DNA of 64,000 bases, from the IMG/VR virus record IMGVR_UViG_3300012007_000014, positions 17,522-81,521 of that record; one strand, given 5' to 3'. Source of the DNA: a virus (Duplodnaviria; Caudoviricetes). The notes under the pieces were generated by a model that was given only the letters and a program-made list of their open reading frames with translations, was not told the DNA's origin and did not search any database. The position numbers and the translations under genes were made by a program. Below are positions 26,563 to 63,429 of the stretch, piece after piece; position 1 is the stretch's first letter; the number at the start of each line of letters is the position of its first letter.

Positions 26563-27327
26563 TTATAACCTCCACCACCTTGGAATGATAGATAACTTTG
26601 TAATAGAATCTGAATAGGAAATCACATTCTTTTTTCCAAGATACATTTTATCGAGTCCAGATGGAAGTGAAAATGTGGATTTGGAATTGAGATTTTCTGT
26701 TCCGTGATAGACATTCATCATGTCGCAATCAACAGTTGCATCAGACTCTACTGTTACCAAAAATGTTCCATCTTCATTTTGAATAGTAACTGTTCCTTTT
26801 CCTTCAATCATAATTATTGGAAAGGCGATAAAAGAAGTAGGATTGAATAATGTAAGCCCTTTTTCAATTATCACAGGAATTTCTCCATACTTCAGGAATC
26901 TCTGTGGTTTACAATTAAACTTAATATTCACCATTCCTGCTTCCAACGAATCTATCATTGACGGACTAAAATCTTGTGAAATATAAGCCATTCTGTATTC
27001 GTCTGGATGCCAAGTATCTTCCAGCCTTTTGTAACCGATTGGACCAAACAGCCATTCTCTTACTGCTGCAAGTCTTTGATCCATATCAAATGGATACCAT
27101 TCTTCTGGAATAAAGCCTACACCATCGTAAGTAACATCGGTGTCATCATAGTATCCCTTGTCAATTAGCAAAGATCCATTTCTTCCTGGAATTTGAACAG
27201 TATCATAAGCCCTTTTGGGAGCACCATAGGTACCCCCGCCAGAGCAAATAAGGCGAAAATCAGAAGAGGCTTTTCCATTAAATATAAAACACTTTTCCGT
27301 GAGCAAATCTCCAATATTTAAGCCCAT
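26563..27327 (-). CDS. Distal tail protein (Dit)
   Basis: FIFNGKASSDF, IPGRNG, FNCKPQRF, IIPRWWRL; follows tape measure. Confidence 0.85.
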   Translation of the reverse strand: MGLNIGDLLTEKCFIFNGKASSDFRLICSGGGTYGAPKRAYDTVQIPGRNGSLLIDKGYYDDTDVTYDGVGFIPEEWYPFDMDQRLAAVREWLFGPIGYKRLEDTWHPDEYRMAYISQDFSPSMIDSLEAGMVNIKFNCKPQRFLKYGEIPVIIEKGLTLFNPTSFIAFPIIMIEGKGTVTIQNEDGTFLVTVESDATVDCDMMNVYHGTENLNSKSTFSLPSGLDKMYLGKKNVISYSDSITKLSIIPRWWRL

Positions 27328-33300: not shown

Positions 33301-36300
33301 CTAAGAACAGAGATAGCAACGCTCATTCCAATTAAGGATAGAGATAAAAGTCCAATCGATGCTGCTATCTGTATGGTTAAGTCATTAAAGGCATTAACAA
33401 CTGCCTTTAATCCTATGAAAATAACGACAACTGCAGCAATTGAACCTGCAAGTTGTCCAAGAAATGCAACAATTCCTCCAACCTCTCCAAATAATGCTTG
33501 AAGAGCTTTTATATGAGCGAATATCAATCCTCCAATAACAGTCATCTCTTGCATAAAGAGTCCTGCCTGCACAACTATAATCTTAATTGCCATATTCATA
33601 AAGACAATAGAAGCTGCAAGAGCTGCAATGCCAGCTGCCATTTTGAGCATGGAAATAGAAGCCTGTGAAATCTTATCAGAAAACTTAGCAAACGTTGCCA
33701 TCACGACAATAAGTGCTGCAAATCCAGCTGCCAAGATTCCAACTGGAACGACAATTCTTGCAAGGAACTCCTGCCAAGTTTGAATGTGATTGTAGAGCAC
33801 ATTTACAGCAACTGTAGTAACACCAAGCTCAATGCCAAGAACTGCAAGTACACCAGCAAAGGAAGTCATGGCAAGTGTAAAAGCACCAAGACCCTTGGTA
33901 TTAACCTTTCTAGAAAGAACCGTTGTCAAATATGCAAGAGCTGCTGCACAACCAGTGATTGTGATAGTAAGACGAGCAATCGTTGCTGCTGCTCTTTCAA
34001 ACCGTTCCGGATCAATTTGAACAACAGAAAGTGCAATGAGTGCTGCTGTAAGAATACCAACGCCAATTGCAATGTTTCTAAATGTCTTTGCACCATTAAT
34101 TGCTGTGAGCTGTACGAAATATCCTCTAATTGCACCAAGAGTCTTCTTTAAAGAACCTCCAAGTGTATCAAAAGCATCACCAAATGTCTGGAAGGAATCT
34201 GTTAACTTCTTTAAGTAACGAATAAACAGCAAGATATATCCAAAGGCAAGGATCTGCTGCCAATCCATTTCATTTATCTTAGTAATAAACTTTCCGACAA
34301 GAGTGTCAGTTTGCCCAGCAGCTTTCACAGCATTACTTGCATTTAGTGCAAAAGACTTAAGAGTTTCAACAATTGTGGCAAAGATTGATTGACTCTTTTG
34401 GAGTGCGGGGGTTGTCTTCTCAATCTTCTTTCCAAGAGCACCCATCTTATCTGCAGAAGCACCAATAGTATCTCCAAAGGATCCAACTGTTTCGGAGTGC
34501 TTAGAGAACTTGTTTATAATTGAAGATATGGAAGATTTTACATTGTTAATTGCATCATTTAAGCTAATCTCTCCTTTTGCAAGAGAGAAAATAGATTTCA
34601 CAAAGGAAGAGATTGCTGTTCCAGCGATGAGAAGACCTCTTGCTATTGTTCCAAAAATATCATTTGAACTTGCAAGTTTTGTGATAAAACTTACAATACT
34701 ATCTTTCATCTGAATAATAACAGTGACAATTGCAGAAAGATTCTTTTTAACCCCATTCCAATCAATGGATTTAATCTTCTGAATGAGTAAAGAGATACCA
34801 ATAATTGCAGCTCCAACTACTGTCTGAAGAACTGCTGCAGCAACTCTAAGACCTTTCACAATTCCTTGGATAACTTTAGAAGAAGAAAGTTTCTTTATAA
34901 TTGGCTCTACCTTTTGAATAAGAGAGCTAATTACAGAAGATACTCCTCCAACTGCTTCTCCTGTATCCTTAAAGCTCTTATTAAGTCCAAGAACTGTTTT
35001 TAACAAATTGAAGGATAAGATAATCTTAAATAATGAGATAATTGTATTAAGGCCAAGTCCTCCCATAAACAAAGACTGCAATGCTTTAATAGCAGTCGTG
35101 ATAAGAAGGAAGGACATAATCGGTTTTCTAAAAGCAAGGATTACTTCAAGACCCGTTTTAATAATAGAGAACGTTGTCTTAGCAACTTCCTTGAGATCCG
35201 CCATTTGATCCTTGGTAAGGATAAGGTTTCTAGTAAAGCGCTCAATAAAGTCTGTAATAGCCATGAGTCCTTTTGCAGAGTTTACAGATCCTTGAACATA
35301 CCCTGTCACCTCTTGCAAAGCCTCTCCTATTGGCTTTAAAACACTCCAAATCGCATTGAAAATATTAGCAATGGATTGGAGCATCTCCTTTCTTCCACCC
35401 TCTGCTTTCCAGACAGCAAGCATAGAGTTTCTAAAGTCAGACACTTTATTGATGGCATTTCCTAAAATGTTAGAGATTCCAGTCCAAAGCCCTTTTGCCT
35501 CTTCGAAATCACCAATGACAGTTCTAAAACTCTGTGTCCATCCAGATCCAATTGCTTCTCCAAGGGTGTCCACCAACATGGAAAATGTTTTGACATCTTT
35601 TGCGGCATCAGCAGCTTTCATTCCAAGTTGCTCAAACTGCTTTATTTGAGTAGCAGTAAATCCTTGAGCTTTAAGTCTCTTCTCATAATTCTCTTGCTCT
35701 ACTTTTGTTAAATCTCTTATGTCTGTTGCATAAAGTTTAAGAGCAGTTGTCAGGGTATCATTGGTAAGCCATTGATATTGAAGAGAATCATTAAAACCTT
35801 TCTGAGCATTGAAGAGTTCTGAAATATCACCCTTCATGTTCGTTGTTACGGTTCTGTAACCACCACTAACTTTCTTAACTGTACCAAGTGCTTCTGCTGT
35901 TTGAAGGAGCGTATTCTTAAACTCTACGGTAGCCATCATAGAGTTCTCAATAGATTTCCAGTCGATGAGTTTTGTATAACCAGAAGACAGTGCCTGAGCA
36001 AAGTTATACATAGCATGAGAAGCTTGTTGTGCATTTGCTCCAGAGATAGCGGCCTCATTAGCAATACCTTTAATGGCAGCCACTGCATCATCAAGTTTAA
36101 CTCCCTGATTCGTAAATTTACCGATATTGGAAGTCATATCTTGAAACTTATAGATGGTATCATCTGAGTATTTGTTTAACTCATCAAGCTTTTTATTTAC
36201 TCTTTCAACAGATTCTCCTGTTCCAGCCATAATGGTTTGAACAGATCCCATCATGTCTTCGTATTCCTTGAAGCCTTCTCTTGGACCAGACGTGATCATG

Positions 36301-36611
36301 GAGAGTCCTTTATGGACGAAGCTGCTTACGGAATTTCCAATATTACGAAGAACTTGATCAGAAATTGTACCAAGTGTAGAAAACTTTTTGGTCATGACAT
36401 CAAGAGAACTATTCATTTGATCAAAAGAAGAGTTCGCCTTGGATAACTGACCTTCCATTCCAGAGAACATCTCTTTTCCAGTTTTCTTGGTGTTCTCTTC
36501 AATGGTATCGTTTAATTTATTTAGAGATTGCAGAGTTTCCTGAATACCAGCTTCGAATTGTTTGTTATCGAATTGCATCTGCACAACTCTTTGATCAACT
36601 TGTGTTGCCAT
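27318..36611 (-). CDS. Tape measure protein (3097 aa)
   Basis: Tape-measure domain (LNKYSDDTIYKFQDMT..IGKF..QG), long Ala/hydrophobic helical region, position. Confidence 0.93.
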   Translation of the reverse strand: MATQVDQRVVQMQFDNKQFEAGIQETLQSLNKLNDTIEENTKKTGKEMFSGMEGQLSKANSSFDQMNSSLDVMTKKFSTLGTISDQVLRNIGNSVSSFVHKGLSMITSGPREGFKEYEDMMGSVQTIMAGTGESVERVNKKLDELNKYSDDTIYKFQDMTSNIGKFTNQGVKLDDAVAAIKGIANEAAISGANAQQASHAMYNFAQALSSGYTKLIDWKSIENSMMATVEFKNTLLQTAEALGTVKKVSGGYRTVTTNMKGDISELFNAQKGFNDSLQYQWLTNDTLTTALKLYATDIRDLTKVEQENYEKRLKAQGFTATQIKQFEQLGMKAADAAKDVKTFSMLVDTLGEAIGSGWTQSFRTVIGDFEEAKGLWTGISNILGNAINKVSDFRNSMLAVWKAEGGRKEMLQSIANIFNAIWSVLKPIGEALQEVTGYVQGSVNSAKGLMAITDFIERFTRNLILTKDQMADLKEVAKTTFSIIKTGLEVILAFRKPIMSFLLITTAIKALQSLFMGGLGLNTIISLFKIILSFNLLKTVLGLNKSFKDTGEAVGGVSSVISSLIQKVEPIIKKLSSSKVIQGIVKGLRVAAAVLQTVVGAAIIGISLLIQKIKSIDWNGVKKNLSAIVTVIIQMKDSIVSFITKLASSNDIFGTIARGLLIAGTAISSFVKSIFSLAKGEISLNDAINNVKSSISSIINKFSKHSETVGSFGDTIGASADKMGALGKKIEKTTPALQKSQSIFATIVETLKSFALNASNAVKAAGQTDTLVGKFITKINEMDWQQILAFGYILLFIRYLKKLTDSFQTFGDAFDTLGGSLKKTLGAIRGYFVQLTAINGAKTFRNIAIGVGILTAALIALSVVQIDPERFERAAATIARLTITITGCAAALAYLTTVLSRKVNTKGLGAFTLAMTSFAGVLAVLGIELGVTTVAVNVLYNHIQTWQEFLARIVVPVGILAAGFAALIVVMATFAKFSDKISQASISMLKMAAGIAALAASIVFMNMAIKIIVVQAGLFMQEMTVIGGLIFAHIKALQALFGEVGGIVAFLGQLAGSIAAVVVIFIGLKAVVNAFNDLTIQIAASIGLLSLSLIGMSVAISVLSTQLGNPIKALQGLGIALLGLVGVLTVLSIFAFSAGVPTLKSIATSLLALSGAFIIFAAAVTLFGKADFFTIGKGLLIMAGGMFAAAWSIKIMNGAEVGKIAGTMLALAGAMYILAPIMAIMGALWKPMAAGLALVAGMMISLAFSVKLMDKAKPLNVIPIVGVMLLAIQMMGKMAINLAALPMDQSIAAAAEIAGMMLALGLAIKIVGDVTKDMKGLDIVAFIATIGSFSVAIYAMSQIVTALAGLQNVDAAITIAESLSMMMLAMSASIALIANIVQGFTALDIGAFAVTVLSFSGAVAILSLALVLVAQIPAQDLLGVALALNATMAVFAICMSVMMTIGQNMSAIASLGISVMMIAFAGAVAILAVSMTMLAQIPADRLTQVAIVIGVLMGIMVALTAVVGIFGTGLSLATPAILAFAAVILSIAAAFVGFGAGAALFGVGIMLITKGIAALLPQVTAFVTAMAALSDQAGSLALMAGALTLLGLSLIAIGAGGGIAGVGLLIFAAGLGAVLLVIVSVAEQVAGFLISLKEVSEEAAQWGMDLAQKLADGISAGIDLVKNAASSIASAIASFLHFSTPDEGPLANSDSWMPDFTSMLAGGLEAGVPKVKAASSDIASSIADTLNPKDGAKLGENFGSATASGVASTSDDAQNAGQEVGSAASEGVTEGADAENTGKSNMLELVKGVISGEVPASTAMENFGSMAKDKLSGAFDGNGTGGSMISELTSGIASGDISLAGITGGNIGDLMGSSFLSNILGYVSSARAAMSSLDLGYVGAGTGTEGEISFRTGTKKNNGAKHWTKGKWVMQKDPKTGKMKRVYQKGSWESGAKNDSGLPFSWSDFASKGDSKTGSPSTTPDLGGSGGGDSGSKKKGKGSGGGSKSAKDNTRALEEFQNTLEKFNERAIPIINKFTSSFGSMMSTVSDSTSYQIGAEGFELLLSEIYKTSNKADEVYEDSEEKGTALQQRANAIREAFVEAFNKISDAIKGSLDFYTEFDKKTSDMIKPDKLIMNAKSQVDALRESTDALTSLAYRGVDDDTLADLGSNPLENYQKIMELRQMSNSELKDFLGYQAKAEKLAQEATVRVENARMVALYLNKMKEDGLKTYEELDGMTKAYVDTLREENKVKAMGIALDSDAYDHSGLEKAYGELKKYADAAGMSLSDLYGYLHQTIDSTNILKTVIISDVQEAYTQFDNAMSKLSEYESKAKAFGSAMKDAIEGFGGAFESLDISSNVTGKQLLSNLEKRVAGIKDYQLEILSLRQRGLNQEALQELISQGQGTVIAAGKMGDEWIKKVNDNYKDYKEALKVSAKKQDLFEKYSLWVEKNTNKEYQNEIKNAENAKKKITQLNKEYQNLNLTAAQMDEEATKAADHAVSNIAGSMDDGKDAVKVAGKELGETAVSSFKDSVENVTNVLGESMDLGESGIFGNAIDGIGDVSNEFLMAALNYQDFIAQVGPDNDTARQAFDDLATAAQNYGITEEQLGAILEDRTTIQDALTNNIVKNFDKVFKKATESSKLVEQFKLTANEVGDAIKSVLDNTNLYAELSDKQDQISGDELITRMRGNLDKAEKELQNYLALEAKGLNSGLLEQLAEQGPEYLAAATQWTSDQVSSANAMYERATTIGDDAKAKASQQWLDAGTMNGQTYQQALSAAMSDVNALATTVQTMVTNFSTVIDPALISMGTEAAALFGQSIQAALSNDTETISQTSQTTASTIATNMATGLQTGYQENEAAVANASKGIADKATSEIDKKVNSSEGSKNGKDYASSMVKSVEAQEGNMFNAGSNLMQGLIDGINSKKEEFDALCNEIATELSSTVASMNQIHSPSRVMFKLGQFMDEGYIRGLDSSSDRISEVANNIGSIVGSALDADLGANPTITPVVDYSNIYASQGLISSMYNGSYGINLNPNLGNVTTPKDSELNRLNGMFGRISNGDVVSAITSLREDVVNLGNAVSKMQIVLDSGEIAGAVTNGVSQNINNAVGRRESVWA

Positions 36612-50009: not shown

Positions 50010-52064
50010 TCAGGCGCCAGTTCCAGCAGCCTTCACAGGCTTGTAGTAGAACGTGATTGCAGACAGAGGCTTAACAAGAGCACCGGACATACGAGTCTCA
50101 TACAGGCAGATCTGTGTATTCGTGTTCAGGTCGAAATCATCGAAGAAGTCGGTCTTTGCACCGCCATTTGTACCAACATTGTAATCTGCAAGGTTGACAT
50201 CAACACCTGCGACATCGTACTTGGTCTTGGTAGAGCCATCATCACCAGTGACCTCAATCTGAAGGCCATCCATAACCTCAATCGGCTGAACAGTGGAGAC
50301 TCTCATTGCAGTTGCAACCTCAGCCTCAGACTTGTACATCCGCTCTCCAATACCATTCTCAAGAAGCAGAACGTTGGTAAGCTCATCCTCCTTGGTGTAG
50401 AAGGTCATGTTGCCAGAGCCCTTGTACTGCTTTCTAGCCTTGAGCTGTGCCTTCAGCAGAGCCTTTGCCTTCTGATCGTCGGTTGCGTTCTCAGGAATCT
50501 CAACAGGGAACTTAATGGTGTAGAGATCAGAGTCATTGAAGACAGGGCGAATATTCTCTTCCTTAATCTTGTCCTCATCAGATGCAAGACGACCATCACC
50601 GATCAGGATTGCTCTTGCAATCTCCTCACGAAGCATGACCTGCATCTCAGCCTTAACCCAAGCGACCACATCGAACTCAGTGATGTCATCGATGTCATCC
50701 TTGTCGAGCTTCTGCTTCTTATAGATGGTCTGTGGAGGCGTCACACGCTTTAAGAGAGAGAAGACCTCCTCCTTCTTAAGCTTTCCCTTAATGTAGCCCT
50801 TTGCTCTTGCCTCATCCTCGGTGATGTTTGCAAGAACACTCTTCACACGAGAGAACGGAGTCTTGTGAACAGAAGACAGAACCTTGTCCACCCAGCCCGT
50901 ATCTCTCTTAATGAACTCGGGCTTGTCGCCAACCATCTTTGCCTCAGGGAAGAGATAGTCGATGTTCTCAATGCCATAAGTCTGGTCACCATGAGCGATC
51001 GACTCATCATCGCCGTAATACTCATCAAACGCCTGGCTAAGCTTGCCAGTTCTCTGGGTGAGCTCCATGATGTTCGTCATATCATCATGAGAAATGTACT
51101 CTCTACCCTCATCTGCTGCGCCATAATCCTCAAATACATTGTGCTTCACGTTATCATCCTCCTCATCGGATTCTTCATCTGCAGTTTCAAGTGCCTTACC
51201 AATCAGAAAATCAACAACCTTCTTCTGCTTGGGTGTTAATGTGTTGATGACATCCTCGACGGTCTCATCTTCCTCGTCGTCCTCGTCGTCTTCATCATCC
51301 TCAGCATGCTCTACGTCGTCCTCATCGTCATAATCATCTGAGTCGTCGTAGTCATCCTCATCATCTTCGTCATCATCGTAATCGTAATCGTCATCATCCT
51401 CTGCGTGCTCGACGTCCTCATCCTCGTCTTCGTCGTCAGCCTCATCAGAAGTAATCTGACTAATAATGATGGCAACAGCTTTCTTCTGCTTATCAGTTAA
51501 GGTATCAAATACGTCCTTAACAGTCTCCTCGTCGTCATCTTCATTGTCAGCGGGAGACTTTCTTCTCGTATCTTCCTTTGCCATGTCTTCTTCCTCACTT
51601 GCATCTGCATGATAAATCTCAGGTGCACCAAAGCCCCAAATTTCTGCCTCATCATCTGAAATATCACCATGCTCCAATACTGTATCAATTCTTGCTTCTG
51701 GATCAGCACCACCAATTACTAGCGATACTTCCTTGATCACTCCATGAAGAATATCTCCTCCTCTCCTAATAAGCTTATTGGCCCAAATAGAAAGGGAATT
51801 AATATCTCCATTTCGAAGAAGCTCTTTTGCAGTCTGTCCACCTTCTGTATCGTTGAAATATCCATCAACTCTGGTACCTCCAGGGACACAATGCAAAATT
51901 GCATGACCAAGCACCTGTCCTACTTCATCGTGATTGTGCATATAACAAAGTGGGACCTGCTCGCCATCCTGTTGATCAAAGCAGCCGTCTCGTATCGTTG
52001 TGCCGTCCGAGCAGAGAACATTGGACTTACTAGCCCATCCCTGAAAATCAGGTTTCCTCATCGT
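50010..52064 (-). CDS. Fused prohead protease - acidic scaffold - major capsid protein
   Basis: HK97-type protease motifs (MHNH, SLSIWA, EVSLV..GADP.A), D/E linker, capsid domain (KTPFSRVKS, TPPQTIYKKQKLD, ETRMSGAL); strong codon bias. Confidence 0.92.
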   Translation of the reverse strand, partial: TMRKPDFQGWASKSNVLCSDGTTIRDGCFDQQDGEQVPLCYMHNHDEVGQVLGHAILHCVPGGTRVDGYFNDTEGGQTAKELLRNGDINSLSIWANKLIRRGGDILHGVIKEVSLVIGGADPEARIDTVLEHGDISDDEAEIWGFGAPEIYHADASEEEDMAKEDTRRKSPADNEDDDEETVKDVFDTLTDKQKKAVAIIISQITSDEADDEDEDEDVEHAEDDDDYDYDDDEDDEDDYDDSDDYDDEDDVEHAEDDEDDEDDEEDETVEDVINTLTPKQKKVVDFLIGKALETADEESDEEDDNVKHNVFEDYGAADEGREYISHDDMTNIMELTQRTGKLSQAFDEYYGDDESIAHGDQTYGIENIDYLFPEAKMVGDKPEFIKRDTGWVDKVLSSVHKTPFSRVKSVLANITEDEARAKGYIKGKLKKEEVFSLLKRVTPPQTIYKKQKLDKDDIDDITEFDVVAWVKAEMQVMLREEIARAILIGDGRLASDEDKIKEENIRPVFNDSDLYTIKFPVEIPENATDDQKAKALLKAQLKARKQYKGSGNMTFYTKEDELTNVLLLENGIGERMYKSEAEVATAMRVSTVQPIEVMDGLQIEVTGDDGSTKTKYDVAGVDVNLADYNVGTNGGAKTDFFDDFDLNTNTQICLYETRMSGALVKPLSAITFYYKPVKAAGTGA

Positions 52065-53382
52065 CATATCCTCCACTATTTAGTGCATCCAAGATATCTT
52101 GTACATAATCATCATTTTGCCTTGTATCTGCACCATCATTTTGAGAGTCTTCGTCTCCTCCCGTATTCTGCTCAACCGTCGCACTAGATTGAGTGATGTT
52201 AGGATTGGATAAAGTCTCAGCCTGTTGTGCATCTGAAGGTTTCAGTCCGATTTCTGCTCGGATCTCATTGGATGTCATGATTTCATTACGTCTAAACTTG
52301 TCGGCAATATCAGCAAGCTGACTGACAGGAACAAGCTTGAAAGGATCTCTAAAGAAGACAATAGACTGTCCCTGAGATCTTGCTGTTCTAGATAAGAACT
52401 TTCGCTTAAACTCATCACAAATGACAGAACAGATCGGTGCAATCGTATTGTTGTAGTAATTAATCATTACTGCTTCATTTGCTGATCCATCCATTACGCC
52501 TTGAGTTAAACCAAGCTGGTTATAGAGCTGGGTTGTTAAATCTTTCACCTGATCCCAAAGATTGTTTTCAAGTGAGCGATTAAGCTGAATGATTCTTTCT
52601 GTACCATCCGCCCAAGCAACACCATATCTAGAGCCCTCAAGCTGCTCTGTTAATTCCTTCCGTCTCTGATTGGCAATCTCTTTTCGCTGTTCACTCTTTA
52701 CTGCATAAGGAAGCTGAATAATAAGATCAAGCTTACCTGCTGCTGACTGTTCGTTTAACTGATCCAGTTTTGCAATTGTCCTTTGAAGGCGTTTTAGTGT
52801 AGAGTTTGGTTCATTCATGATAGAATAGAACGGATTCTCAATCACTGCCACAGAGGACTTAGGAAGCCGCAAATCTTGATAGTTTCCTGTTCGCTCATTG
52901 TAAAGATGAACAACTACTTCAGAAGGGTACCAACCAACAATTCTTCCAACCTTTAGCCTTTGGATCATCCATTGCTCAGATAGTCTTGTAGGATCAAAGT
53001 CAGTATCGGTAGGAACCACTGCAACACAACCCTCATCAAACATTGATTGGACAATATCCTGAAGGAGAGCTTTGCCAGTTTGATCTGTGTTTGCTTCGGT
53101 GTTTAGACAATAATTAAGACCAGAATCGACGTTTTCAATAAACGATCCATTCTCATCAACTTTGCAATGCTCAAACCGAATGGATGAGACATCAATTGCA
53201 ATTCTGTTATAAACAGATGCAACAATGGTTCTTTGAGAGGTGTTTACGAAATGCATTCGATCTGGTCTTGACGAATAACCCATGTACGGCTGGTTATTAG
53301 TGCCATCGTTTCTAATCTCCTGGGTCGGATCTCTTCCGAGGAAGGCATTCCAGCCCGATTTTATTCGTTGGACAATTCCCAT
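52048..53382 (-). CDS. Portal protein
   Basis: YNRIA.DV, EAN.DQT, IENPFY..MNEPNSTL, LDLIIQLPY, DPFKLVP; after terL. Confidence 0.92.
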   Translation of the reverse strand: MGIVQRIKSGWNAFLGRDPTQEIRNDGTNNQPYMGYSSRPDRMHFVNTSQRTIVASVYNRIAIDVSSIRFEHCKVDENGSFIENVDSGLNYCLNTEANTDQTGKALLQDIVQSMFDEGCVAVVPTDTDFDPTRLSEQWMIQRLKVGRIVGWYPSEVVVHLYNERTGNYQDLRLPKSSVAVIENPFYSIMNEPNSTLKRLQRTIAKLDQLNEQSAAGKLDLIIQLPYAVKSEQRKEIANQRRKELTEQLEGSRYGVAWADGTERIIQLNRSLENNLWDQVKDLTTQLYNQLGLTQGVMDGSANEAVMINYYNNTIAPICSVICDEFKRKFLSRTARSQGQSIVFFRDPFKLVPVSQLADIADKFRRNEIMTSNEIRAEIGLKPSDAQQAETLSNPNITQSSATVEQNTGGDEDSQNDGADTRQNDDYVQDILDALNSGGYDDEET

Positions 53383-55139
53383 CAGTCAAAACTCTCCTTG
53401 TTTAGTTTGAAAGCTACAAAAGCATCCATCAGTGCTGCAACAGCATCGATCTTTGCTTCATAACTCTTTTTCATAAGCTTCTTATTCCCATTGGTGTCTT
53501 GGATAACAATACAGTTACCCATTGTGTAAGAGAATAGTTTTTCATCAAATATCAGTAATCTTTGCTCTGCAAGCTTTTTCAATTCTGTCAGAGGAACAGA
53601 TTCTGTCTTAGATCCCTGAATCACTTTTTCAACACCGAACTCTCCATTTTCTGTGCACCAGCGTTGGATGAATTCCTTGGCATTGTAGGGGTCATATCCT
53701 AAACATCTCACGTCATATTTATTCGTTTGAATATGCTTATCAAGATCATCATAAACATCTTGCATATCCAAATTCGTACCAGGCATGACAACAAGCGATC
53801 CTTCTGCCATGAACTCTTCATACTTTTGTCGCATAGCAGCGGGAAGTTGTGACATCGTGTATTCTGAAATGTAATCAATTGTTTTAATCCCAAATCGTCC
53901 ACCTGATAAAGGGAACAAGAATGTGAAAGAACAGAAGTCACCACCTTGAGATAAGTCACATCCAATCGAGCAGGGCATTCCAGTATAGTCTTGGTAATGG
54001 AATGGTTTAATCTCCTCATAAGTAAAGAAGTAGGTATAGCCTTCCATTGGAATGCCGAATCGTTTTGCTAGAATATCATTTCGATCAATCGGGTTATGTT
54101 CTGCTTTTTCTACATCAAGTTGATATGTTTCATAAGAAACAGTCTTACCAAGATTCGGATTTGCTTTCAGCCACATTTGCGGATTGTTCACTTCAGTTAC
54201 ATCATCAAGTTTGTACCAAAAGATAGATACATGAGGATTGTAATAATCCCCTTTTAAGATAGAAGACAACTCCATTTTGATCGTGTCACCAACACCATTT
54301 CTTACGGTTCCCTCTGAGGAAACAGCAATGATGAGAAAGCCATCAATCTTTGCACAACCCTGCTCCAATGCAGTAATTGGACTCTCTCTTATGTCTCCTG
54401 AAAGCCACTCATCGACGGTTGCTATTTTGTCTCCTCGACCCTGAAGCTTATCAATTGACATCGGACAGAATTCGATTAGAGAATTGGTGATAAAGTTTTG
54501 GATGCCTTTCTTTGTTGCTGCTAGTTTCAACTTATTCCTGGAAGAACCGGTTGTGTTATTGATCGATCCTTCTGTTAAAAATGTAAACAATGGCCCACGC
54601 GATCTTGTAATAGCAGTTCTAATGTAAGCAATTGTCTCATTCCCCTGCCTTTCTGTTGGAGCTGTAATGCATTGCTGCGTCGTAGTGGTATCAACGGTAA
54701 GACCATATGATTGGAAGCAAGCTTCATATCCAGTCTTTGAAGCTCCTCGTCCAACAATTAAATATTGATGGTCGACAAGACGCTTCTTTACTTTTCTGTT
54801 TTCGTATCCACCTCTCCCACCGCCATAGTGGTTTGGGTTCCAAACAGTACGATCTGTAAAGTAATACCAACCTAAGATCTCTTCTCCCCAAAGCTTGTAG
54901 GAGTCGAGCATAAAAAAGTCTGAGCCATCTCTTAGAGTTAGCTCAGATTCACAAAACTCAATCCAACCCTCAACAGGAGCGGGATCGTAATAAAATCTAG
55001 GATCTTTAATAAGAGCATCGATCCTATTCATCTCCATGGAAATCTCTTTACAAACTGGAATCTCTCCTCGTAGTACCTTGCTTCTAAACTCTCCGTAATA
55101 TTTTGGGGTTGCGGTGTTAGAGAGCATCGCTCTTGTCAC
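53382..55139 (-). CDS. terL: Terminase large subunit
   Basis: Walker A VGRGASKT, Walker B VDEW, nuclease CDLSQGGDF, YDPYNA, KIDAVAALMD. Confidence 0.95.
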   Translation of the reverse strand: MTRAMLSNTATPKYYGEFRSKVLRGEIPVCKEISMEMNRIDALIKDPRFYYDPAPVEGWIEFCESELTLRDGSDFFMLDSYKLWGEEILGWYYFTDRTVWNPNHYGGGRGGYENRKVKKRLVDHQYLIVGRGASKTGYEACFQSYGLTVDTTTTQQCITAPTERQGNETIAYIRTAITRSRGPLFTFLTEGSINNTTGSSRNKLKLAATKKGIQNFITNSLIEFCPMSIDKLQGRGDKIATVDEWLSGDIRESPITALEQGCAKIDGFLIIAVSSEGTVRNGVGDTIKMELSSILKGDYYNPHVSIFWYKLDDVTEVNNPQMWLKANPNLGKTVSYETYQLDVEKAEHNPIDRNDILAKRFGIPMEGYTYFFTYEEIKPFHYQDYTGMPCSIGCDLSQGGDFCSFTFLFPLSGGRFGIKTIDYISEYTMSQLPAAMRQKYEEFMAEGSLVVMPGTNLDMQDVYDDLDKHIQTNKYDVRCLGYDPYNAKEFIQRWCTENGEFGVEKVIQGSKTESVPLTELKKLAEQRLLIFDEKLFSYTMGNCIVIQDTNGNKKLMKKSYEAKIDAVAALMDAFVAFKLNKESFD

Positions 55140-56595: not shown

Positions 56596-57138
56596 CTACA
56601 TGCCAATATTTTTAATCTTTTCATTAGCCCACATATCGTATTCTGCTTTTGCAGCTTTAGAAGCTTCTGAGTAAGCCTTAGATGGAATATTATGCACAAT
56701 AACACCAGCTAGCACACCAGTAATAGGACCTCCTAGTACAGTTCCAACAGCAGCTCCGATAGCAGTGTTTCTGTCATGAATGTATTTGTAGCCGCCTACT
56801 TCTTTTTCTGCTTTACTAAGACCTTTACCATAAATTTTTGCATTCACGTTTGCCTTATTTGCAAGATCTTTATACTTATTGGCTTTTGACGTATTTCCTT
56901 TTACTCTGGCATCTACTGCTTTACTAGCGTACTTTGATGCAAGTTGTCCCTGCTTCCAAGCTTCAGCAGATCTCCTAGCTCGGCTCTTATAAGACTCAAC
57001 ACGATTCGAACCATCGTCCTGATAAATCCTTTTTCTTCCTGCTGCCGTTAATGTTCCATCCGGATTCTGATATCTTCTAACTCCCCACTTTTGTCCTAGA
57101 ATTCCATGATGAGATAGATAATCGCTATATTCATTCAT
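56596..57138 (-). CDS. HHG-leader protein with C-terminal Gly-rich hydrophobic helix
   Basis: YLSHHGILGQKWGVRRYQN.DGTLT.AG+.R. Confidence 0.8.
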   Translation of the reverse strand: MNEYSDYLSHHGILGQKWGVRRYQNPDGTLTAAGRKRIYQDDGSNRVESYKSRARRSAEAWKQGQLASKYASKAVDARVKGNTSKANKYKDLANKANVNAKIYGKGLSKAEKEVGGYKYIHDRNTAIGAAVGTVLGGPITGVLAGVIVHNIPSKAYSEASKAAKAEYDMWANEKIKNIGM

Positions 57139-57376
57139 ATTCGTTACCCCTACTCCATAATTTGAAGAACTCATTGGGATGAGGATCGTTTGTTGGCTGA
57201 TATGCTCCAATGACGCCAGTCTTTTTATTGACAGCATACATGGAATCTAGAGAGTTAAAGCTATTCTTGTTCTCCAAAAGAAAGATGTAATATCCGTTGT
57301 AGTCAACATACTTTCTTGCTTCCTTTTGAGGGAATTGTTTTAGGAGTTTTTTATAAGCTTCTTGAAAAGTAATCAT
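57131..57376 (-). CDS. Putative immunity/partner of papain-fold protein 57373-58767
   Basis: ATGA-coupled; homologous to 61818-62078. Confidence 0.55.
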   Translation of the reverse strand: MITFQEAYKKLLKQFPQKEARKYVDYNGYYIFLLENKNSFNSLDSMYAVNKKTGVIGAYQPTNDPHPNEFFKLWSRGNEYE

Positions 57377-58767
57377 TTGTCGCCATAGACCTCCTTCTTC
57401 ACTCTATCTTGATTCCACCAATCCATATCTTTGAGTTGTGTGTACTTGTCTTCAATTGCTTGCCATCTATCCCTTTCCTCGTCAGTATCGGGGATATACA
57501 TGTTGAGACTCTTGTTGTAGTGATTGACCATATTCTCGATGTCTTTTACATCATAGTTGAATGTGACGTTCCTATTGGTCTTTGCCTCGTCCACGTTATC
57601 ATTTGGCTCGAGATAACTTGCTGCCGTCTTTGTAAGTGCCTTATCATCTGTTCGAAGAGCTGTTACTTGATTGGGTGCTACATAGTCTGCTTTGCTATAA
57701 TCTGCCATCTTTTCCGTGGTGTTGTTTTGAGCATCATGGATGTAGATCTCTCCGTCTTTCTTTTCCCAAGCGACGTTGTGACCGCCTCCACCTTCCCAAT
57801 AAATGTCAAGACATCCTCTTGCACCATCTTCGTATTTGTCATTGAGCATGTCGGCAGCTTCTTCCATGGTTTCTTTTCCATTGCTTGCCTTCTGCTCTAG
57901 TGCAACATCAAGATCCCAACCACTGTTTATATTGATCGTACCGTCACTATTTTGGTAAGATTCAACACCTTCATAGAAGCTTGAGATCTCTTCATCCGTT
58001 CCACCATTTGGATCATACTGTGCTTCTACGTCGTATCCTCTGTGTCTTGCTTCCCAGGTAAGCGAACAGTCATAACAATTGGTAGACCATCCAGGTTCCA
58101 GATCAATTCCGCCATCGGTCATTGACTTATGAAAGTTCTTATTGACCTCTGCCATTGACTGTTCTTCTGTCTCTGGAGTTTTAATAAGATCAAACTCACT
58201 CATAATTTCTCGTTCTGCTTTTGCTTCTGGATTATTATTGTAGTAAGCATTCAGTTCTGCTTCTGTATAGAAATATCTATACTTGCCCTTAATCAAAAGC
58301 TTTGCAACGTATTTGTGAGTCTTAGAGTTCGTATCTTTATTTGTCTTGGGAATTGGCTTAGGAGAATGGCTTGCTGGATTCTTTGTCTTCTTGTTCTTAG
58401 ATGTACGCTTCTTGATTGCAGCATCTGCCTTGTCGATTACATCCCATCTTCCATTCTTATCGGTGTCAGCAACGTCCTCGATCTTTTCTACAATATCCCA
58501 TTTGCCGTTACCATCTTTGTCGACTGTCTTCTTAAAGCTATTAATTGCCTTATTTAAAAGAGATCTGATCTTCTTTAAAGTCTTTTGTTTCTTATTCTTC
58601 TCAGAGCCTTTTGATCCTTTGAAATAGACATCATACTCTGCTTTAGAATAGAAATATAAATAGGGTTTCTTCTTGTTTCCTGTTTCAATTCTCTTGTAGT
58701 ACTTGTGGGAAGCTTTTGTCTCGTAATGGAGACCTGTTTTTCTATGAGCAATGTAGTCTTCCATCAT
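57373..58767 (-). CDS. YIAH-leader protein with papain-fold (Tox-PL-like) domain
   Basis: TNCYDC...RGYDVEA, GGGHNVAW, IHDAQ = Cys-His-Asp; two HKY..KY.YFY..AE repeats. Confidence 0.75.
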   Translation of the reverse strand: MMEDYIAHRKTGLHYETKASHKYYKRIETGNKKKPYLYFYSKAEYDVYFKGSKGSEKNKKQKTLKKIRSLLNKAINSFKKTVDKDGNGKWDIVEKIEDVADTDKNGRWDVIDKADAAIKKRTSKNKKTKNPASHSPKPIPKTNKDTNSKTHKYVAKLLIKGKYRYFYTEAELNAYYNNNPEAKAEREIMSEFDLIKTPETEEQSMAEVNKNFHKSMTDGGIDLEPGWSTNCYDCSLTWEARHRGYDVEAQYDPNGGTDEEISSFYEGVESYQNSDGTININSGWDLDVALEQKASNGKETMEEAADMLNDKYEDGARGCLDIYWEGGGGHNVAWEKKDGEIYIHDAQNNTTEKMADYSKADYVAPNQVTALRTDDKALTKTAASYLEPNDNVDEAKTNRNVTFNYDVKDIENMVNHYNKSLNMYIPDTDEERDRWQAIEDKYTQLKDMDWWNQDRVKKEVYGDK

Positions 58768-59114
58768 GCATCCCCCGCTTCGTTTTCTGCCATGATACGC
58801 CATTCAAATTCTGCAATCTGTTTGTTCAGCGCATCCAGTGCAAAGCTTGAAGCAGGTGGATCGAACATGACTTTTACTTTCATTCCCACATATGTTTTGA
58901 TAAGATTGAATCTTGGATCAATCACAATATCATCCCAAGTTGAGGTATTGTCCACGATTTCATATCCAGTATCTGGTCCAATTCCTAACTGATGGAGTGT
59001 TGAAAATGTAGTGTTGATATAAAGGAGGATTTGATCATCAAATACTGTATACTCAGGTACAATCCCAAGCTGTTTCTTGATTGAATCCAAAATTGACTCA
59101 TTCTGTTTTGCCAT
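58764..59114 (-). CDS. Head-tail connector/adaptor protein
   Basis: SILDSIKK.LG......FD..I...IN..F..L.QLG.GP...FDPP.S. Confidence 0.8.
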   Translation of the reverse strand: MAKQNESILDSIKKQLGIVPEYTVFDDQILLYINTTFSTLHQLGIGPDTGYEIVDNTSTWDDIVIDPRFNLIKTYVGMKVKVMFDPPASSFALDALNKQIAEFEWRIMAENEAGDA

Positions 59115-59137: not shown

Positions 59138-59895
59138 TTAATCTAGTTCAACAGTTTTGATGTAGTTTTTAATCCAATCAGAACCGCGTTTTGCTTGCGC
59201 AGATTTTTCTAATGATTTAAGCTGCTGATTCATTACTTTATACCAATCGAGTCGATCTTGAATATCATTTTCATCAAGTTCGTCTCTTTCGCCCCCTCTA
59301 ATTGCTGATTCTTTTGGTGAAGTTCCAAGTATAATTAGAGGCTTGTCATTATAAAAATTTGGATCCGTTCTAAGAAAATCTTTATCAGCTATTTGAACTC
59401 CTTCACAAATAACTTTCCTGCCATTCTTGTATTCTCTTGCAGAAAATTCATCCATCGCCTTTATAATATTATCTGAGATTTTAATTCCTTCTTTATGAGA
59501 TTTTTCAAATGTTGGAACGAATTCCTTCCAATTCTTCACATGCTTATTTAAATATGAATTGAAAGATTTATTCTGAAGTTCTCTTTTCGATTCTTCACTC
59601 ATTGGGTTTAAATAGGAATCCAAATTAATCCAATCGGTCTCACCGTCATCGGCCATAAAAGATGCGACGGTTGATTTGCCAGAGCCAGAATATCCAGTTA
59701 TATACAAAGTATTATATTGCGGTGCTTTGCCCCAACGATCAAGATTTGATGATTTAGCATTCTTAAGCCTTTGAAGAGCCGGAGATGAATGAATCTTTTT
59801 ACTACTAGAGGATAAGGTGGACCGTTCTTTACGCCCCATTTTTGTCCCTTAACACCGTGATGCGAAATGGAGTCTAGGTAATACTCACTGCCCAT
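59138..59895 (-). pseudogene. HHG-leader P-loop kinase split by a -1 frameshift near 59800
   Basis: Leader frame 59698-59895 (SISHHGVKGQKWG..GPPYPL) joins frame 59138-59839 (ITGYSGSGKST, WINLD, ICEG). Confidence 0.7.
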
Positions 59896-61560: not shown

Positions 61561-61821
61561 TCAAAACAAATCTTTTAGTATCTTCTCAATGAAAGATTCT
61601 TTTTGCTCTGGAATGTCTTTTACACTTACATCGCTATACTCATCTCTCATATCTTCAAATGCTTTGAACCCATTCTTTCTTGCGAGAAATTCCTCATGCT
61701 TTCTGATAGAATCCGCATAATGAATTCTTCCTTCTGGGGTAAATGTTCCGTCTTTGTACTGCCAGCGTCTCTTGTACCATTTCATTCCATGGATGCCAGA
61801 ATGCTTCACAAAAGTTTTCAT
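61561..61821 (-). CDS. Minimal His-leader protein
   Basis: FVKHSGIHGMKW..RRWQY.DGT.T.EGR.HY. Confidence 0.7.
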   Translation of the reverse strand: MKTFVKHSGIHGMKWYKRRWQYKDGTFTPEGRIHYADSIRKHEEFLARKNGFKAFEDMRDEYSDVSVKDIPEQKESFIEKILKDLF

Positions 61822-62078
61822 CTCGTAAACTTAATTCTGTTTTGCATGCCTTCTCTAAATTCTTTTGGATCCATAACAGGTGAATACTCTGTTACCTTTC
61901 CATTTGCAGACACTTTAAAGAAAGGATCCATAAGAACTTCATCTTTCGGCCACTTATCAGGTCTTAGAGAGAACACGTATCCATCTTTTACTTCAAAACC
62001 AAAGATTGCATGGGATTTAACACCAGAAGACTTTTTTACATAATCTTCAACAATTTTCTTTGCAACATTAATATTCAT
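61818..62078 (-). CDS. Putative immunity/partner of papain-fold protein 62089-63429
   Basis: Directly downstream; homologous to 57131-57376. Confidence 0.55.
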   Translation of the reverse strand: MNINVAKKIVEDYVKKSSGVKSHAIFGFEVKDGYVFSLRPDKWPKDEVLMDPFFKVSANGKVTEYSPVMDPKEFREGMQNRIKFTR

Positions 62079-62088
62079 AGAAACCTCC

Positions 62089-63429
62089 TTACCAAGTATC
62101 AACTTTCTTGCCGCTCCATTTGTTCTCAACAAATCCAGAATCATTAGCAAGCCTTAAAACAGAATCTTGTTCCATAGCATCTAAGTTTGGTTCACAATTA
62201 TCTAATCTATATGTCGAGACACTAGCACTCTTGTCAGCACCATATTCATCCATCATCTCTTTAACAGATTCAAAGCATCTTCCATTTTGTCCATCCTGAA
62301 TTTCGAAGTTACCATCTTTATCATTTGTCCAATGCATCGAATGGCCACCACCGTTATCAGGATATCTAATACTTATTGTACCAGAAGTCATTGGTCCATA
62401 TGATCTTAAGCCATCTTCTGCTGCATCGGAATCCATGTCAATTCTTTGAGCACCTTTGAACCAATAGCCCATTGCATCTGCACTTGAAGGATAGGATTGT
62501 CTTCCAGCATTTACTTCATATCCTCTAAGTCTCATTTCTAGATCAGCAGAACACTTAGCACAATTCTGAGTTGTTCCAGCATCACCAAATCCAGGATTGC
62601 ATAAATCGAGATCTCTATTAAGAAGTTGACCAAAGGAATGATCTCTTACAACATTTCCATTTTCGTCAATGTCATGGAAGTTATCACTTGTTCTGAAATT
62701 AGCATTATTTCTTGCAATTGTCTTGGCAACATTCTCATCCACATAATCTGTTCCATTTATAACCATACTGCTCATTTCCTGCCAATCGAAGTCATGGCCA
62801 TTGATGAGACCTGATACCCATTCTTCTCCTGGGTGATCACTTCTTGAGAATTTGGTAAGACTTCCAACTTGGTAATCTTTTAAATCATCAACCTTTGCTT
62901 TCCCAGATTTGATGAGAGAGTTGATGTATGCGTTCTGACCGCCTCCTGGTTTGCTAGCACTGGTTGCTACTTTTGAAGATCTTGTTTTCACGTATCTCCC
63001 AGTAGATTTTCCAACTTTAACGCCTGCTTGCTTTGCAGCTGCAATCTGTGCTTTGGAATGACTCTCTGCACCAAGTGGATAGGGAGGGCCATTCCTATGT
63101 CCCCATTTCTGTCCAGCAATTCCATGGTGAGAAAGAATGTCATCAGAAGACAAATACTCTTCTAGAAACTTATTACCAATAATAGCACAATGAATCATTA
63201 CATCATCAGGCTGGTAGTGTTTGTAGAAGTCATTGTTTTTACTTGGAGTAAGTTGAATGTTATACTCTTTAACTTTCTTAGCGATTCTCTTTGCAAGTTC
63301 TTTTCGGTACCTAGGCTTGGCCCAATTGAAGAACTTAACGGCAGAGATTACATGAGCCCTTGTATCAAGAGGGAATTTCTTTTGTTCAGGGATTCCGTAT
63401 TCCCTATCCTTCTGTTCCATCGTCTTCAT
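62089..63429 (-). CDS. DUF6582-like N-domain + HHG leader + papain-fold (Tox-PL-like) domain
   Basis: YGIPEQKKFPLD...HV.SA..FF; ILSHHGIAGQKWG; QNCAKC...RGYEVNA, GGGHSMHW, IQDGQ. Confidence 0.78.
   Translation of the reverse strand: MKTMEQKDREYGIPEQKKFPLDTRAHVISAVKFFNWAKPRYRKELAKRIAKKVKEYNIQLTPSKNNDFYKHYQPDDVMIHCAIIGNKFLEEYLSSDDILSHHGIAGQKWGHRNGPPYPLGAESHSKAQIAAAKQAGVKVGKSTGRYVKTRSSKVATSASKPGGGQNAYINSLIKSGKAKVDDLKDYQVGSLTKFSRSDHPGEEWVSGLINGHDFDWQEMSSMVINGTDYVDENVAKTIARNNANFRTSDNFHDIDENGNVVRDHSFGQLLNRDLDLCNPGFGDAGTTQNCAKCSADLEMRLRGYEVNAGRQSYPSSADAMGYWFKGAQRIDMDSDAAEDGLRSYGPMTSGTISIRYPDNGGGHSMHWTNDKDGNFEIQDGQNGRCFESVKEMMDEYGADKSASVSTYRLDNCEPNLDAMEQDSVLRLANDSGFVENKWSGKKVDTW

Follow-up and report, generated by a model that had tools for sequence, protein, structure and literature searches.

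The Locus and Its Layout

The locus described here raises the question of what an enzyme of a toxin family does in a phage that encodes it within its head-gene operon, and what the small gene coupled to it is for. The source phage is uncultured and is represented by a CheckV-complete record of 81.5 kb, of which we analysed a window of 64,000 nucleotides (positions 17,522 to 81,521 of IMG/VR record IMGVR_UViG_3300012007_000014). The features discussed, with their coordinates in the window, are collected in Table 1. A preliminary description of this DNA had read the region as a papain-fold toxin-like cargo gene with a coupled partner.

Table 1. Features of the locus, in window coordinates.
Feature	Coordinates	Strand	Basis
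Tox-PL1 (Pfam Gln_amidase) cysteine hydrolase gene, 464 aa (pair 1)	57373..58767	-	Pfam, phrog_5234, relatives
Leader (D-Y-I-A-H, residues 4-8) and first HKY..Y.YFY..EY module (residues 21-48)	58624..58752	-	alignment
Two 18-residue D-x-D-x-N-G-x-W-D units, Ca-loop-like (residues 83-112)	58432..58521	-	sequence
Second HKY module (residues 151-176)	58240..58317	-	alignment; modelled beta-hairpin and helix
Papain-fold catalytic domain (residues ~196-392)	57592..58182	-	invariant columns and fold matches
C-terminal extension (residues 393-464)	57376..57591	-	helical, pLDDT 40-69; closest relatives only
81-aa partner gene, predicted active-site inhibitor	57131..57376	-	ATGA coupling, family, complex model
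180-aa protein, gene directly after partner	56596..57138	-	DUF7211 leader, Pfam 30.1 bits (cut-off 27)
Phage_connect_2 connector gene, upstream neighbour	58764..59114	-	Pfam E 1.8e-34; coupled to enzyme gene
Paralogous Tox-PL1 enzyme, pair 2, 446 aa	62089..63429	-	family HMM E 4e-63; NC / H / DxQ intact
Pair-2 partner, 86 aa	61818..62078	-	18% identical homolog of the 81-aa partner; partner HMM E 4e-21

The enzyme gene, whose stop codon is 57373-57375 on the minus strand, is preceded by a Shine-Dalgarno sequence, GGGGGA, and its first ATG (58767-58765) shares ATGA with the TGA of the connector gene. A second in-frame ATG (58764-58762), which would give 463 aa, is the start used by close relatives. 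The product consists, in order, of the leader, an HKY module, a Lys-rich linker, the second HKY module, the papain-fold domain and the C-terminal extension.

Family and Predicted Fold of the Enzyme

The PF15644 (Gln_amidase) profile matched the enzyme over positions 1-113 of 114 with 32 bits (cut-off 24.1, E 3e-7), a six-frame search with the same profile gave 34.9 bits, phrog_5234 matched with E 8.5e-15, and 20 full-length relatives were found. The Tox-PL/glutamine-deamidase-like family proposed in the preliminary description is thus borne out by a score above the Pfam cut-off, as well as by a predicted papain-like fold. The motifs cited there, a Cys in TNCYDC, a His in GGGH and an Asp in HDAQ together with RGYDV.A, were all found at the coordinates given. 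TNCYDC contains Asn230-Cys231 (58080-58075), GGGH contains His330 (57780-57778), HDAQ contains Asp345 (57735-57733) and Gln347 (57729-57727), and RGYDVEA spans R243-A249. Every one of the 61 aligned phage relatives has N230, C231, R241, G244, Y245, D246, H330 and Q347, and at least 90% have D345. The signature that defines Tox-PL1 consists of NC, H and DxQ (PMC3482391), and the enzyme has each element (N230-C231, H330, D345-A-Q347). Judged by its sequence, the enzyme is a member of the Tox-PL1 / Gln_amidase family.

The catalytic core of the predicted enzyme model has pLDDT of 80-95, and the model points to a papain-like hydrolase fold. Its best match in VIA-align structure searches was SpvD (Z 11.1, rmsd 2.9, 154 aligned), followed by OspI (Z 9.6), C39 peptidases (Z 8.3-8.7), staphopain (Z 8.2) and AvrPphB (Z 7.4). 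For both the enzyme and the partner model these searches were more informative than Foldseek against the PDB, which gave weak rows only (E above 1e-3). A PDB sequence search with the profiles of both families returned nothing usable, that is, no solved sequence relative of either chain. OspI of Shigella and SpvD of Salmonella, the nearest solved folds, have Cys-His-Asp chemistry in common with the enzyme, but are only 8-16% identical to it, and the fold match does not discriminate cleavage from deamidation. Both are delivered by a T3SS and act on eukaryotic targets; OspI is a glutamine deamidase, hence the Pfam name Gln_amidase. Our literature searches brought up no experimental studies of DUF7211, of the leader peptide or of PF15644 / Tox-PL1.

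Setting among the Head Genes

The Tox-PL1 gene is flanked by the connector gene on one side and by the TerL, portal and S78-MCP genes on the other, and it sits inside the head-gene operon, to which it is translationally coupled. The same phage has an S78 prohead protease, present as a fusion with the capsid protein. The order of connector followed by cargo recurs in relatives and in Lactococcus phage 1706, the orf7 of which carries DUF7211 motifs at the equivalent position and is annotated as 'structural protein'. The gene of the 180-aa protein starts with an ATG at 57138 that overlaps the stop codon of the partner gene (ATGAATGA). Among 61 phage Tox-PL1 proteins, head-linked domains are frequent: 27 start with DUF7211, and five are fused to MuF or minor-capsid-protein-2 domains. 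In cultured Bacteroides and Arthrobacter phages the Tox-PL1 domain is found on proteins annotated 'MuF-like / minor head', and it also occurs within mycobacteriophage 'VIP2-like toxin' proteins. A cultured Acutalibacter muris phage was among the further matches. The presence of Tox-PL1 among phage head genes has been known since 2012 (Zhang et al., PMC3482391).

This setting bears on a rival reading, in which the enzyme is a classical interbacterial polymorphic toxin, exported by a lysogen or a phage-derived particle against competitors, and the partner confers immunity on kin. Most known examples of Tox-PL1 belong to polymorphic toxins (T6SS, T7SS and Rhs-type) whose genes are followed by one for immunity, and antibacterial toxin-immunity pairs with papain-like toxins have been proven (Cpe1/Cpi1, PMC12136450; StbD-CT/StbI). 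However, Pfam revealed no secretion or trafficking domain in the enzyme (the sole match at E up to 0.1 was Gln_amidase), its gene is coupled into the head operon, and we found neither an integrase nor a resolvase in the CheckV-complete phage genome. The lack of the latter two argues against a toxin that serves a lysogen, and the phage appears virulent. We therefore regard an interbacterial role as very improbable.

The N-Terminal Region of the Enzyme

Pfam did not find a MuF (Phage_Mu_F) domain at the N-terminus of the enzyme. The two HKY...Y.YFY..AE repeats noticed in the preliminary description are present, and the alignment shows that both modules, as well as a [Y/E]-[L/I]-x-H start, are kept across the enzyme family. 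The second module is modelled as two strands (155-159 and 162-166) and a helix (169-178) with pLDDT of 78-93. The N-terminus made of leader and HKY module also matches neighbouring ORFs that are devoid of the catalytic domain (loci L002, L005, L007, L029, L037, L072 and L086). A trait of polymorphic toxins is thus present here, in that a single N-terminal module is common to proteins with differing C-terminal domains.

The motif of DUF7211 (PF23847), H-x-G-x-x-G-x-K-W-G-x-R, gave no Pfam match at the N-terminus of the pair-1 enzyme. The possibility that this N-terminus is a degenerate DUF7211 found no statistical support, as an HMM built from 25 leaders gave E above 1; the two have in common only the Y-I-x-H that precedes the motif. 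From the position of the gene and the shared [Y/E]-[L/I]-x-H start, we infer that the N-terminus may nevertheless serve in capsid loading.

Between the modules lie the D.D.NG.WD units (residues 83-94 and 101-112), where the model has pLDDT below 50. The preliminary description had called them EF-hand-like repeats: the two units are there, and their loops agree with EF-hand positions 1, 3, 5, 6, 9 and 12, but flanking helices of normal length are absent. We rejected EF-hand identity, given the lack of a Pfam match, the low pLDDT and the restriction of the units to close relatives (one to three copies in the closest ones, none in distant ones). As no Pfam match was obtained, 'EF-hand-like' denotes a resemblance of pattern only.

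The Partner Family and Its Linkage to Tox-PL1 Genes

The 81-aa gene had been described as translationally coupled downstream of the enzyme gene in a toxin-immunity layout. In agreement with this, its start overlaps the enzyme stop (ATGA), AAGGAGG is located 14 nt upstream, and the order of the two genes is conserved in phages. Its product belongs to a family of proteins of ~80 aa for which there is no Pfam model, and of which an exhaustive search found 484 clusters.

We assessed the distribution of this family via Tox-PL1 loci and, independently, via a reverse sample of partner homologs. A partner-type small gene lay directly downstream of the enzyme gene in the first loci examined (8/8). Among non-redundant Tox-PL1 ORFs of IMG/VR, the partner was found downstream in 60/76, and in cis, as an N-terminal domain, in four more. 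Conversely, matches of the partner HMM adjoined or lay within a Tox-PL1 ORF in 72/75 cases in viral loci and in 37/39 in genome loci, and all five partner homologs picked blindly from the exhaustive search directly follow a Tox-PL1 gene (5/5). The cis forms read inhibitor, leader, enzyme, in the manner of a zymogen. Thus, in the regions sampled, the partner seldom occurs anywhere but immediately after a phage Tox-PL1 gene.

A second group of 12 downstream small ORFs proved to be related to the partner family (hhalign probability 96%). Another cluster of six was unrelated, and in Microbacterium phage GardenState the small gene that follows Tox-PL1 showed no detectable relation to the partner (hhalign probability 0.4%). 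Such unrelated genes indicate that certain lineages may have another partner or none.

The window contains a second pair of the same kind. Its enzyme is ~21% identical to that of pair 1, scores 15.6 bits with PF15644, which is below the cut-off, and carries the DUF7211 motif at residues 95-112.

Predicted Fold of the Partner and Its Complex with the Enzyme

The partner model (pLDDT 90.8) suggests a PepSY-like alpha-beta4-alpha arrangement, possibly with the helix packed on a four-stranded antiparallel sheet as in PepSY domains. Its top fold matches were the PepSY proteins CD1622, YpmB and YpeB at only Z 5.8-6.4, a range that may mean no more than a common arrangement, and the vibriolysin propeptide matched with Z 4.9. 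The PepSY (PF03413) profile did not match the 81-aa partner, which is no sequence member of that family, and weak matches of this profile were obtained for 7/77 members of the partner family (best E 8.6e-4). An arrangement of this kind may be shared with the propeptides of thermolysin-type (M4) proteases and with YpeB/YpmB, and some relatives of the partner likewise sit as a prodomain-like N-terminal part of the enzyme. The PepSY inhibitors known to us target metalloproteases, not cysteine hydrolases.

The predicted complex of enzyme and partner reached an ipSAE of 0.86, as compared with 0.01 for the best control; the mark applied was attained by 58/80 solved complexes and by 2/110 mismatched pairs. 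Contact agreement between three runs was at least 91%, and the pLDDT of the partner was at least 86. The modelled interface takes in enzyme residues 228-232, 323-331, 345 and 347, and the beta2-beta3 loop of the partner, around Asp44, is placed against Cys231 and His330. A structure prediction of the complex was among the checks put forward in the preliminary description, and its outcome, with contacts to both C231 and H330, favours the pairing. According to the model, the partner would cover the catalytic cleft of the enzyme.

The same observations bear on the reading of the partner as an independent Tad2-like anti-defence sponge for Thoeris signal molecules, with an accidental place next to the enzyme gene. 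The Tad2-like profile (PF11195) did match the partner over most of its length, yet with 14.3 bits and E 0.062, short of the 25-bit cut-off, and did so in just one of the 77 family members; we rejected Tad2 identity on these grounds. The near-exclusive adjacency to Tox-PL1 genes, the fusions and the modelled active-site interface all point to the enzyme as the ligand, so that a sponge function is the least probable of the readings considered here. Taken together, adjacency, the blind-sampled homologs, the fusions and the predicted complex show that the 81-aa gene encodes the cognate partner of the enzyme.

Proposed Function of the Module

The reading that we consider the most likely, and fairly probable, is that the two genes form a module in which a Tox-PL1 papain-fold cysteine hydrolase, either a peptidase or a deamidase, is loaded into the head, co-injected with the DNA and silenced by its cognate inhibitor. 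The enzyme and the partner would be made late, alongside the head proteins, and the partner would hold the enzyme inactive in the producing cell. The leader and the HKY modules would stand in for a MuF or DUF7211 tag and load the enzyme into the procapsid, where the S78 prohead protease might trim its extreme N-terminus at the I-A-H site. The partner, which is untagged, would stay behind or be stripped off. Injected with the DNA into the next host, the enzyme would then cleave or deamidate a host protein at an early stage of infection. The labels 'toxin' and 'cargo' should be read in this sense, with packaging deduced from gene position and leader. As the phage kills its host anyway, the need for a toxin is not obvious, and the enzyme may act on a protein of defence or housekeeping, or on a different target altogether.

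A different role for the same enzyme would be that of an assembly-stage or releasing peptidase, which acts on phage proteins (leaders, polyprotein joints or head proteins) in the procapsid or at ejection, with the partner as a prodomain-like timer. A processing peptidase was suggested by Zhang et al. for MuF-linked Tox-PL1 (PMC3482391), and several of our observations fit: some relatives are ORFs of 1,343-1,375 aa that end in a Tox-PL1 module and have three or four DUF7211 motifs in their interior, the C39 leader peptidases are near in fold (Z 8.3-8.7), and the cis order of inhibitor, leader and enzyme recalls the PepSY propeptides of M4 proteases. Homologues in actinophages are even annotated 'capsid maturation protease', but this label tracks an N-terminal VG15 domain and gene position. 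Moreover, the phage already has a prohead protease in the S78 protein fused to its capsid protein, and Tox-PL1 is missing from two cultured phages with complete genomes, FP_oengus and 1706, although both encode DUF7211 proteins (in one case with two motifs). The two Tox-PL1 paralogues, only ~21% identical and each with its own partner, resemble diversifying effectors rather than one housekeeping protease. On balance, we consider a peptidase that acts on phage proteins unlikely, though clearly less so than an interbacterial toxin.

Returning to an injected and silenced hydrolase, its design may be more general. We put forward, tentatively, that a large lineage of phages of gut and rumen Firmicutes and Actinobacteria carries cargo with a safety catch, in the form of leader-loaded swappable enzymes and a PepSY-like inhibitor. 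A short leader, either DUF7211 or the HKY variant, would replace MuF and load the swappable enzymes into the capsid, of which the dangerous ones (the Tox-PL1 hydrolases) would be accompanied by a dedicated inhibitor; this inhibitor would be left behind, or the prohead protease would sever it at the leader; and the enzyme would become active only once in the capsid or in the next host.

Comparison with Known Systems

The closest known counterparts are the MuF-Tox-PL1 prophage fusions (PMC3482391), which have the same domain family and signature, whose genes likewise neighbour those for terminase, portal and capsid, and for which a head-packaging route was already put forward. In contrast to them, the enzyme described here has, instead of MuF, a short leader and two HKY hairpin modules, and it has a dedicated partner family, whereas that paper gave the MuF-linked forms neither an immunity protein nor an inhibitor. 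The MuF polymorphic toxins of temperate phages (Jamet et al. 2017, PMC5576092) share with our locus a head-associated N-terminus, a variable C-terminus of toxin type and a small downstream gene, but here there is no MuF domain and the phage is apparently virulent; papain-fold domains go unmentioned in that work. The proposed logic of an N-terminal tag, procapsid loading and injection is also that of the T4 internal proteins IPI-III and of Alt, which lose their capsid-targeting sequence to the prohead protease (summarised in PMC5512222). Here, this logic is deduced from the genes; there is no sequence relation to the T4 cargo, and the latter has no inhibitor partner.

Cpe1-Cpi1 (PMC12136450) and StbD-CT-StbI (bioRxiv 10.64898/2026.05.07.723447) are antibacterial systems with toxins of papain/C39 type that cut GyrB and ParE. 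In them a papain-fold cysteine peptidase is neutralised by a small cognate protein encoded next to it, a layout like the one predicted for our locus, and they are distant structural neighbours of the enzyme (8ssm, Z 7.1; 9l5u). Those toxins, however, belong to another sequence family and are delivered by T6SS or CDI. Cpi1 is reported to compete for the substrate surface rather than to occlude the active site (PMC12136450), unlike the phage partner, which is predicted to occlude it.

Significance

Whereas the enzyme family is known, no description has so far been given of the partner family or of where it sits in a phage cargo array. To our knowledge, phage proteins co-injected with DNA are known in detail for few model phages, such as the Alt and internal proteins of T4 and Dar of P1. 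The locus, from a phage lineage that is common in metagenomes of gut and rumen, offers a concrete, testable pair, in which a toxin-family enzyme is combined with a specific and very compact (~80 aa) predicted inhibitor, from a family without a database model. Because one genome holds two divergent pairs, specificity can be tested cleanly. Were the inhibitor to act as predicted, it would provide a new natural scaffold to block papain-fold hydrolases, a marker for phage-borne Tox-PL1 effectors, and a route to the host protein disabled on phage entry. Should the design of a cargo with a safety catch hold true, phage biology would gain a new family of cysteine-hydrolase inhibitors and an activation step of zymogen type.

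Pair-1 Genes and Their Genomic Context

The pair-1 enzyme and its 81-aa partner are encoded by overlapping genes (see the table of features). ATG 58767, the first of the two possible enzyme starts, forms an ATGA overlap with the connector stop codon, and a ribosome-binding site, GGGGGA, is located just 5' of the start. The 81-aa gene starts in an ATGA overlap with the enzyme stop codon, with AAGGAGG upstream, and ends in a ATGAATGA overlap with the next gene, which encodes a DUF7211 leader. All motifs that the preliminary description had listed for the enzyme and the partner region were present in the sequence.

The record is 81,521 bp long and rated complete by CheckV; the window is its right-hand 64 kb. 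GC skew is negative along the whole window, all genes with homologue support are on the minus strand, and the plus-strand ORFs across pair 1 are only overlaps of minus-strand genes. In minus-strand order from 64000 down, a run of short genes, an HNH endonuclease gene and the connector gene (Phage_connect_2) lead to pair 1, which is followed by two further small genes and then by TerL, portal and S78-capsid fusion genes. Six DUF7211 motifs were found in the genome, every one within the block that holds pair 1. A search of the genome revealed no integrase or resolvase. The terminase is 67% identical to that of human-faeces contigs, and the closest Tox-PL1 relatives in genomes belong to prophages of Clostridia and Coriobacteriia from gut and rumen (identity at most 28%); the host is therefore probably an uncultured gut-type Firmicute.

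Two other features of this genome were observed. The tail region contains a single ORF of 3,097 aa. For the P-loop kinase-like gene (233 aa), what seems to be the DUF7211 leader is encoded apart, by a 65-aa ORF in another frame; this split (59138-59895, minus strand) may stem from a sequencing error, from a frameshift or from a cassette recently exchanged out of frame.

Coordinates of the features discussed (window positions unless a locus or accession is given)
Feature	Location	Strand	Remarks
Pair-1 enzyme	57373-58767	-	Tox-PL1; start at ATG 58767 or next ATG 58764
Pair-1 partner	57131-57376	-	81 aa
Pair-2 enzyme	62089-63429	-	Tox-PL1, about 21% identical to pair-1 enzyme
Pair-2 partner	61818-62078	-	18% identical to pair-1 partner
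Large terminase	53382-55139	-	Downstream of pair 1
Portal	52048-53382	-	After large terminase
S78 protease and major capsid protein, fused	50010-52076	-	After portal
18-residue repeat region	58432-58521	-	D-x-D-x-N-G-x-W-D unit
Kinase-like gene	59138-59839	-	P-loop
Apparent leader of kinase-like gene	59698-59895	-	DUF7211
Long tail-region ORF	27318-36611	-
Fused partner/Tox-PL1 ORFs	L033:722-2635, L022:4347-5693, L045:4305-5672, L081:4236-5687		Partner N-terminal, before leader
Related-phage polyprotein ORFs	L061:1671-5699, L058:1332-5456		1,343 and 1,375 aa
Lactococcus phage 1706 region	L174, NC_010576, 1729-9031

The Enzyme Belongs by Sequence to the Tox-PL1 Family

The enzyme scores 32 bits with PF15644 (Gln_amidase, Tox-PL1), above the cut-off of 24.1. 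The NC-H-DxQ signature, taken from the family-defining paper (PMC3482391), corresponds to N230-C231, H330 and D345-x-Q347, and these residues show little or no variation across 19 full-length relatives and 61 IMG/VR phage proteins. The AlphaFold model, confident at residues 150-390, aligned best with the injected cysteine hydrolases SpvD (Z 11.1) and OspI (Z 9.6), and further with C39 leader peptidases (Z 8.3-8.7), staphopain and AvrPphB. Judged by its sequence, the enzyme is a new member of the known Tox-PL1 family, and its chemistry would be that of a peptidase or a deamidase.

The N-terminal half is specific to the family. From a [Y/E]-[L/I]-x-H start it runs through an HKY..YRYFY..EY module (hairpin and helix) and a linker rich in Lys to another HKY module. 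As the same N-terminus heads other ORFs of related phages that lack the catalytic domain, it behaves as a shared 'front end'. The 18-residue unit is present in one to three copies in relatives that are 65-86% identical (P0002, P0006), and this difference in copy number points to recent gain and loss of repeat units.

The Partner Is Predicted to Cover the Active Site

The partner has no sequence relative in Pfam, PHROG or PDB. An exhaustive search with a profile of eight syntenic copies yielded 484 clusters. The partner is modelled with confidence (pLDDT 90.8) as four strands with one helix before and one after them. The top structural matches are the PepSY-domain proteins CD1622 (Z 6.4), YpmB (6.1) and YpeB (5.8), with vibriolysin propeptide (4.9) and cystatin-fold proteins lower, and 7 of 77 family members show weak PepSY matches. 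We describe the modelled fold as PepSY-like, which is short of assigning the protein to the PepSY family.

Enzyme residues 150-395 and the partner were predicted to form a complex with ipSAE 0.86 in three runs, as compared with 0.01 for the best of three controls; in calibration of the tool, the mark was reached by 58 of 80 solved complexes and by 2 of 110 mismatched pairs. The runs agreed in at least 91% of contacts, with partner pLDDT of at least 86. The predicted interface takes in enzyme residues 228-232 (Asn230, Cys231), 323-331 (His330), 345 and 347, and partner residue 44 contacts Cys231 and His330. Since PDB sequence searches with both families found no solved complex of relatives, it is improbable that the score merely reproduces a known structure. 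The model supports, and does not prove, binding of the partner over the enzyme active site.

Linkage of Enzyme and Partner Genes

The window contains a second such pair (pair 2). In six distant metagenome relatives, the enzyme gene is followed by a gene of 77-96 aa, and the small genes of these loci are mutually homologous. A partner-HMM match -70 to +60 nt from the Tox-PL1 stop was found for 60 of 76 non-redundant IMG/VR ORFs (80 loci); four others encode the partner domain within the Tox-PL1 ORF itself, two extend past the contig end, and ten have no match. In bacterial genomes, 36 of 81 Tox-PL1 ORFs (80 loci) have a match, and another 12-member cluster of downstream small ORFs is related to the partner (profile-profile probability 96%). 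Conversely, 72 of the 75 partner-HMM matches in the viral loci and 37 of the 39 in the genome loci adjoin a Tox-PL1 ORF or fall inside one. As all these loci had been chosen around Tox-PL1, we also took five homologues, chosen by rank, from the exhaustive partner search, and all five were directly 3' of a Tox-PL1 gene.

In the pair-2 enzyme, an extra region of about 90 residues (1-90; weak DUF6582 match, E 0.0023) precedes the DUF7211 motif, so that its leader is internal. In a Mycobacterium phage group, Tox-PL1 occurs inside proteins annotated 'VIP2-like toxin' (genes 2 and 3), near the left genome end.

Association with Phage Head Genes

An N-terminal DUF7211 leader is present in 27 of 61 phage Tox-PL1 proteins, and a MuF or minor-capsid-protein-2 fusion in five. 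In cultured Arthrobacter and Bacteroides phages the Tox-PL1 domain is on 'MuF-like / minor head' proteins, and in cultured phages it also occurs after the portal gene, where the proteins bear the label 'capsid maturation protease'. Lactococcus phage 1706, which is cultured and virulent, has the gene order of the window: HNH, connector, orf7, TerL, portal and S78-capsid fusion. Its orf7, annotated 'structural protein', contains two DUF7211 motifs; unlike the window phage, 1706 lacks Tox-PL1. Given these architectures, head proteins and gene order, the most economical reading would be that the enzyme is loaded into the phage head, which fits the published idea that MuF-linked enzymes enter with DNA (PMC3482391; PMC5512222).

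Fused Forms and the Processing-Peptidase Alternative

In four lineages (L022, L033-35, L045 and L081), a partner-like domain makes up about the first 80 residues of the enzyme, followed by a DUF7211-type leader near residue 120 and the catalytic domain, and no separate partner gene is found downstream. A complete genome among them has the fused Tox-PL1 and no other. This is a fusion of the partner and enzyme families, arranged as a zymogen would be, with the inhibitor first, the processing or tag site next and the enzyme last. The database proteins P0073, P0094, P0112 and P0161 have the partner and DUF7211 followed by a different C-terminal region. Two related-phage polyproteins have Tox-PL1 as their final module, behind three or four internal DUF7211 motifs; a partner gene follows, and they join cargo that is separate genes in the window.

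Such polyproteins, in which Tox-PL1 comes last after several leaders, would also fit a processing peptidase, the role put forward by Zhang et al. (PMC3482391), as would the C39 leader peptidases among the structural neighbours and the cis-inhibitor architecture. However, the phage already has an S78 prohead protease, two divergent enzyme-partner pairs are present in one genome, and the complete genomes of FP_oengus and 1706 encode DUF7211 proteins and no Tox-PL1. On balance we regard a processing peptidase as unlikely, though by no means negligible.

The location of Tox-PL1 beside phage packaging genes has been known since 2012 (PMC3482391). In Pfam and the searchable literature we found neither the partner family, nor a description of how it is almost always linked, and at times fused, to the enzyme, nor one of short leaders taking the place of MuF. 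We regard the pair as a well-supported instance of such an enzyme-partner arrangement. Phage 1706 may offer an experimental model of the DUF7211 leader.
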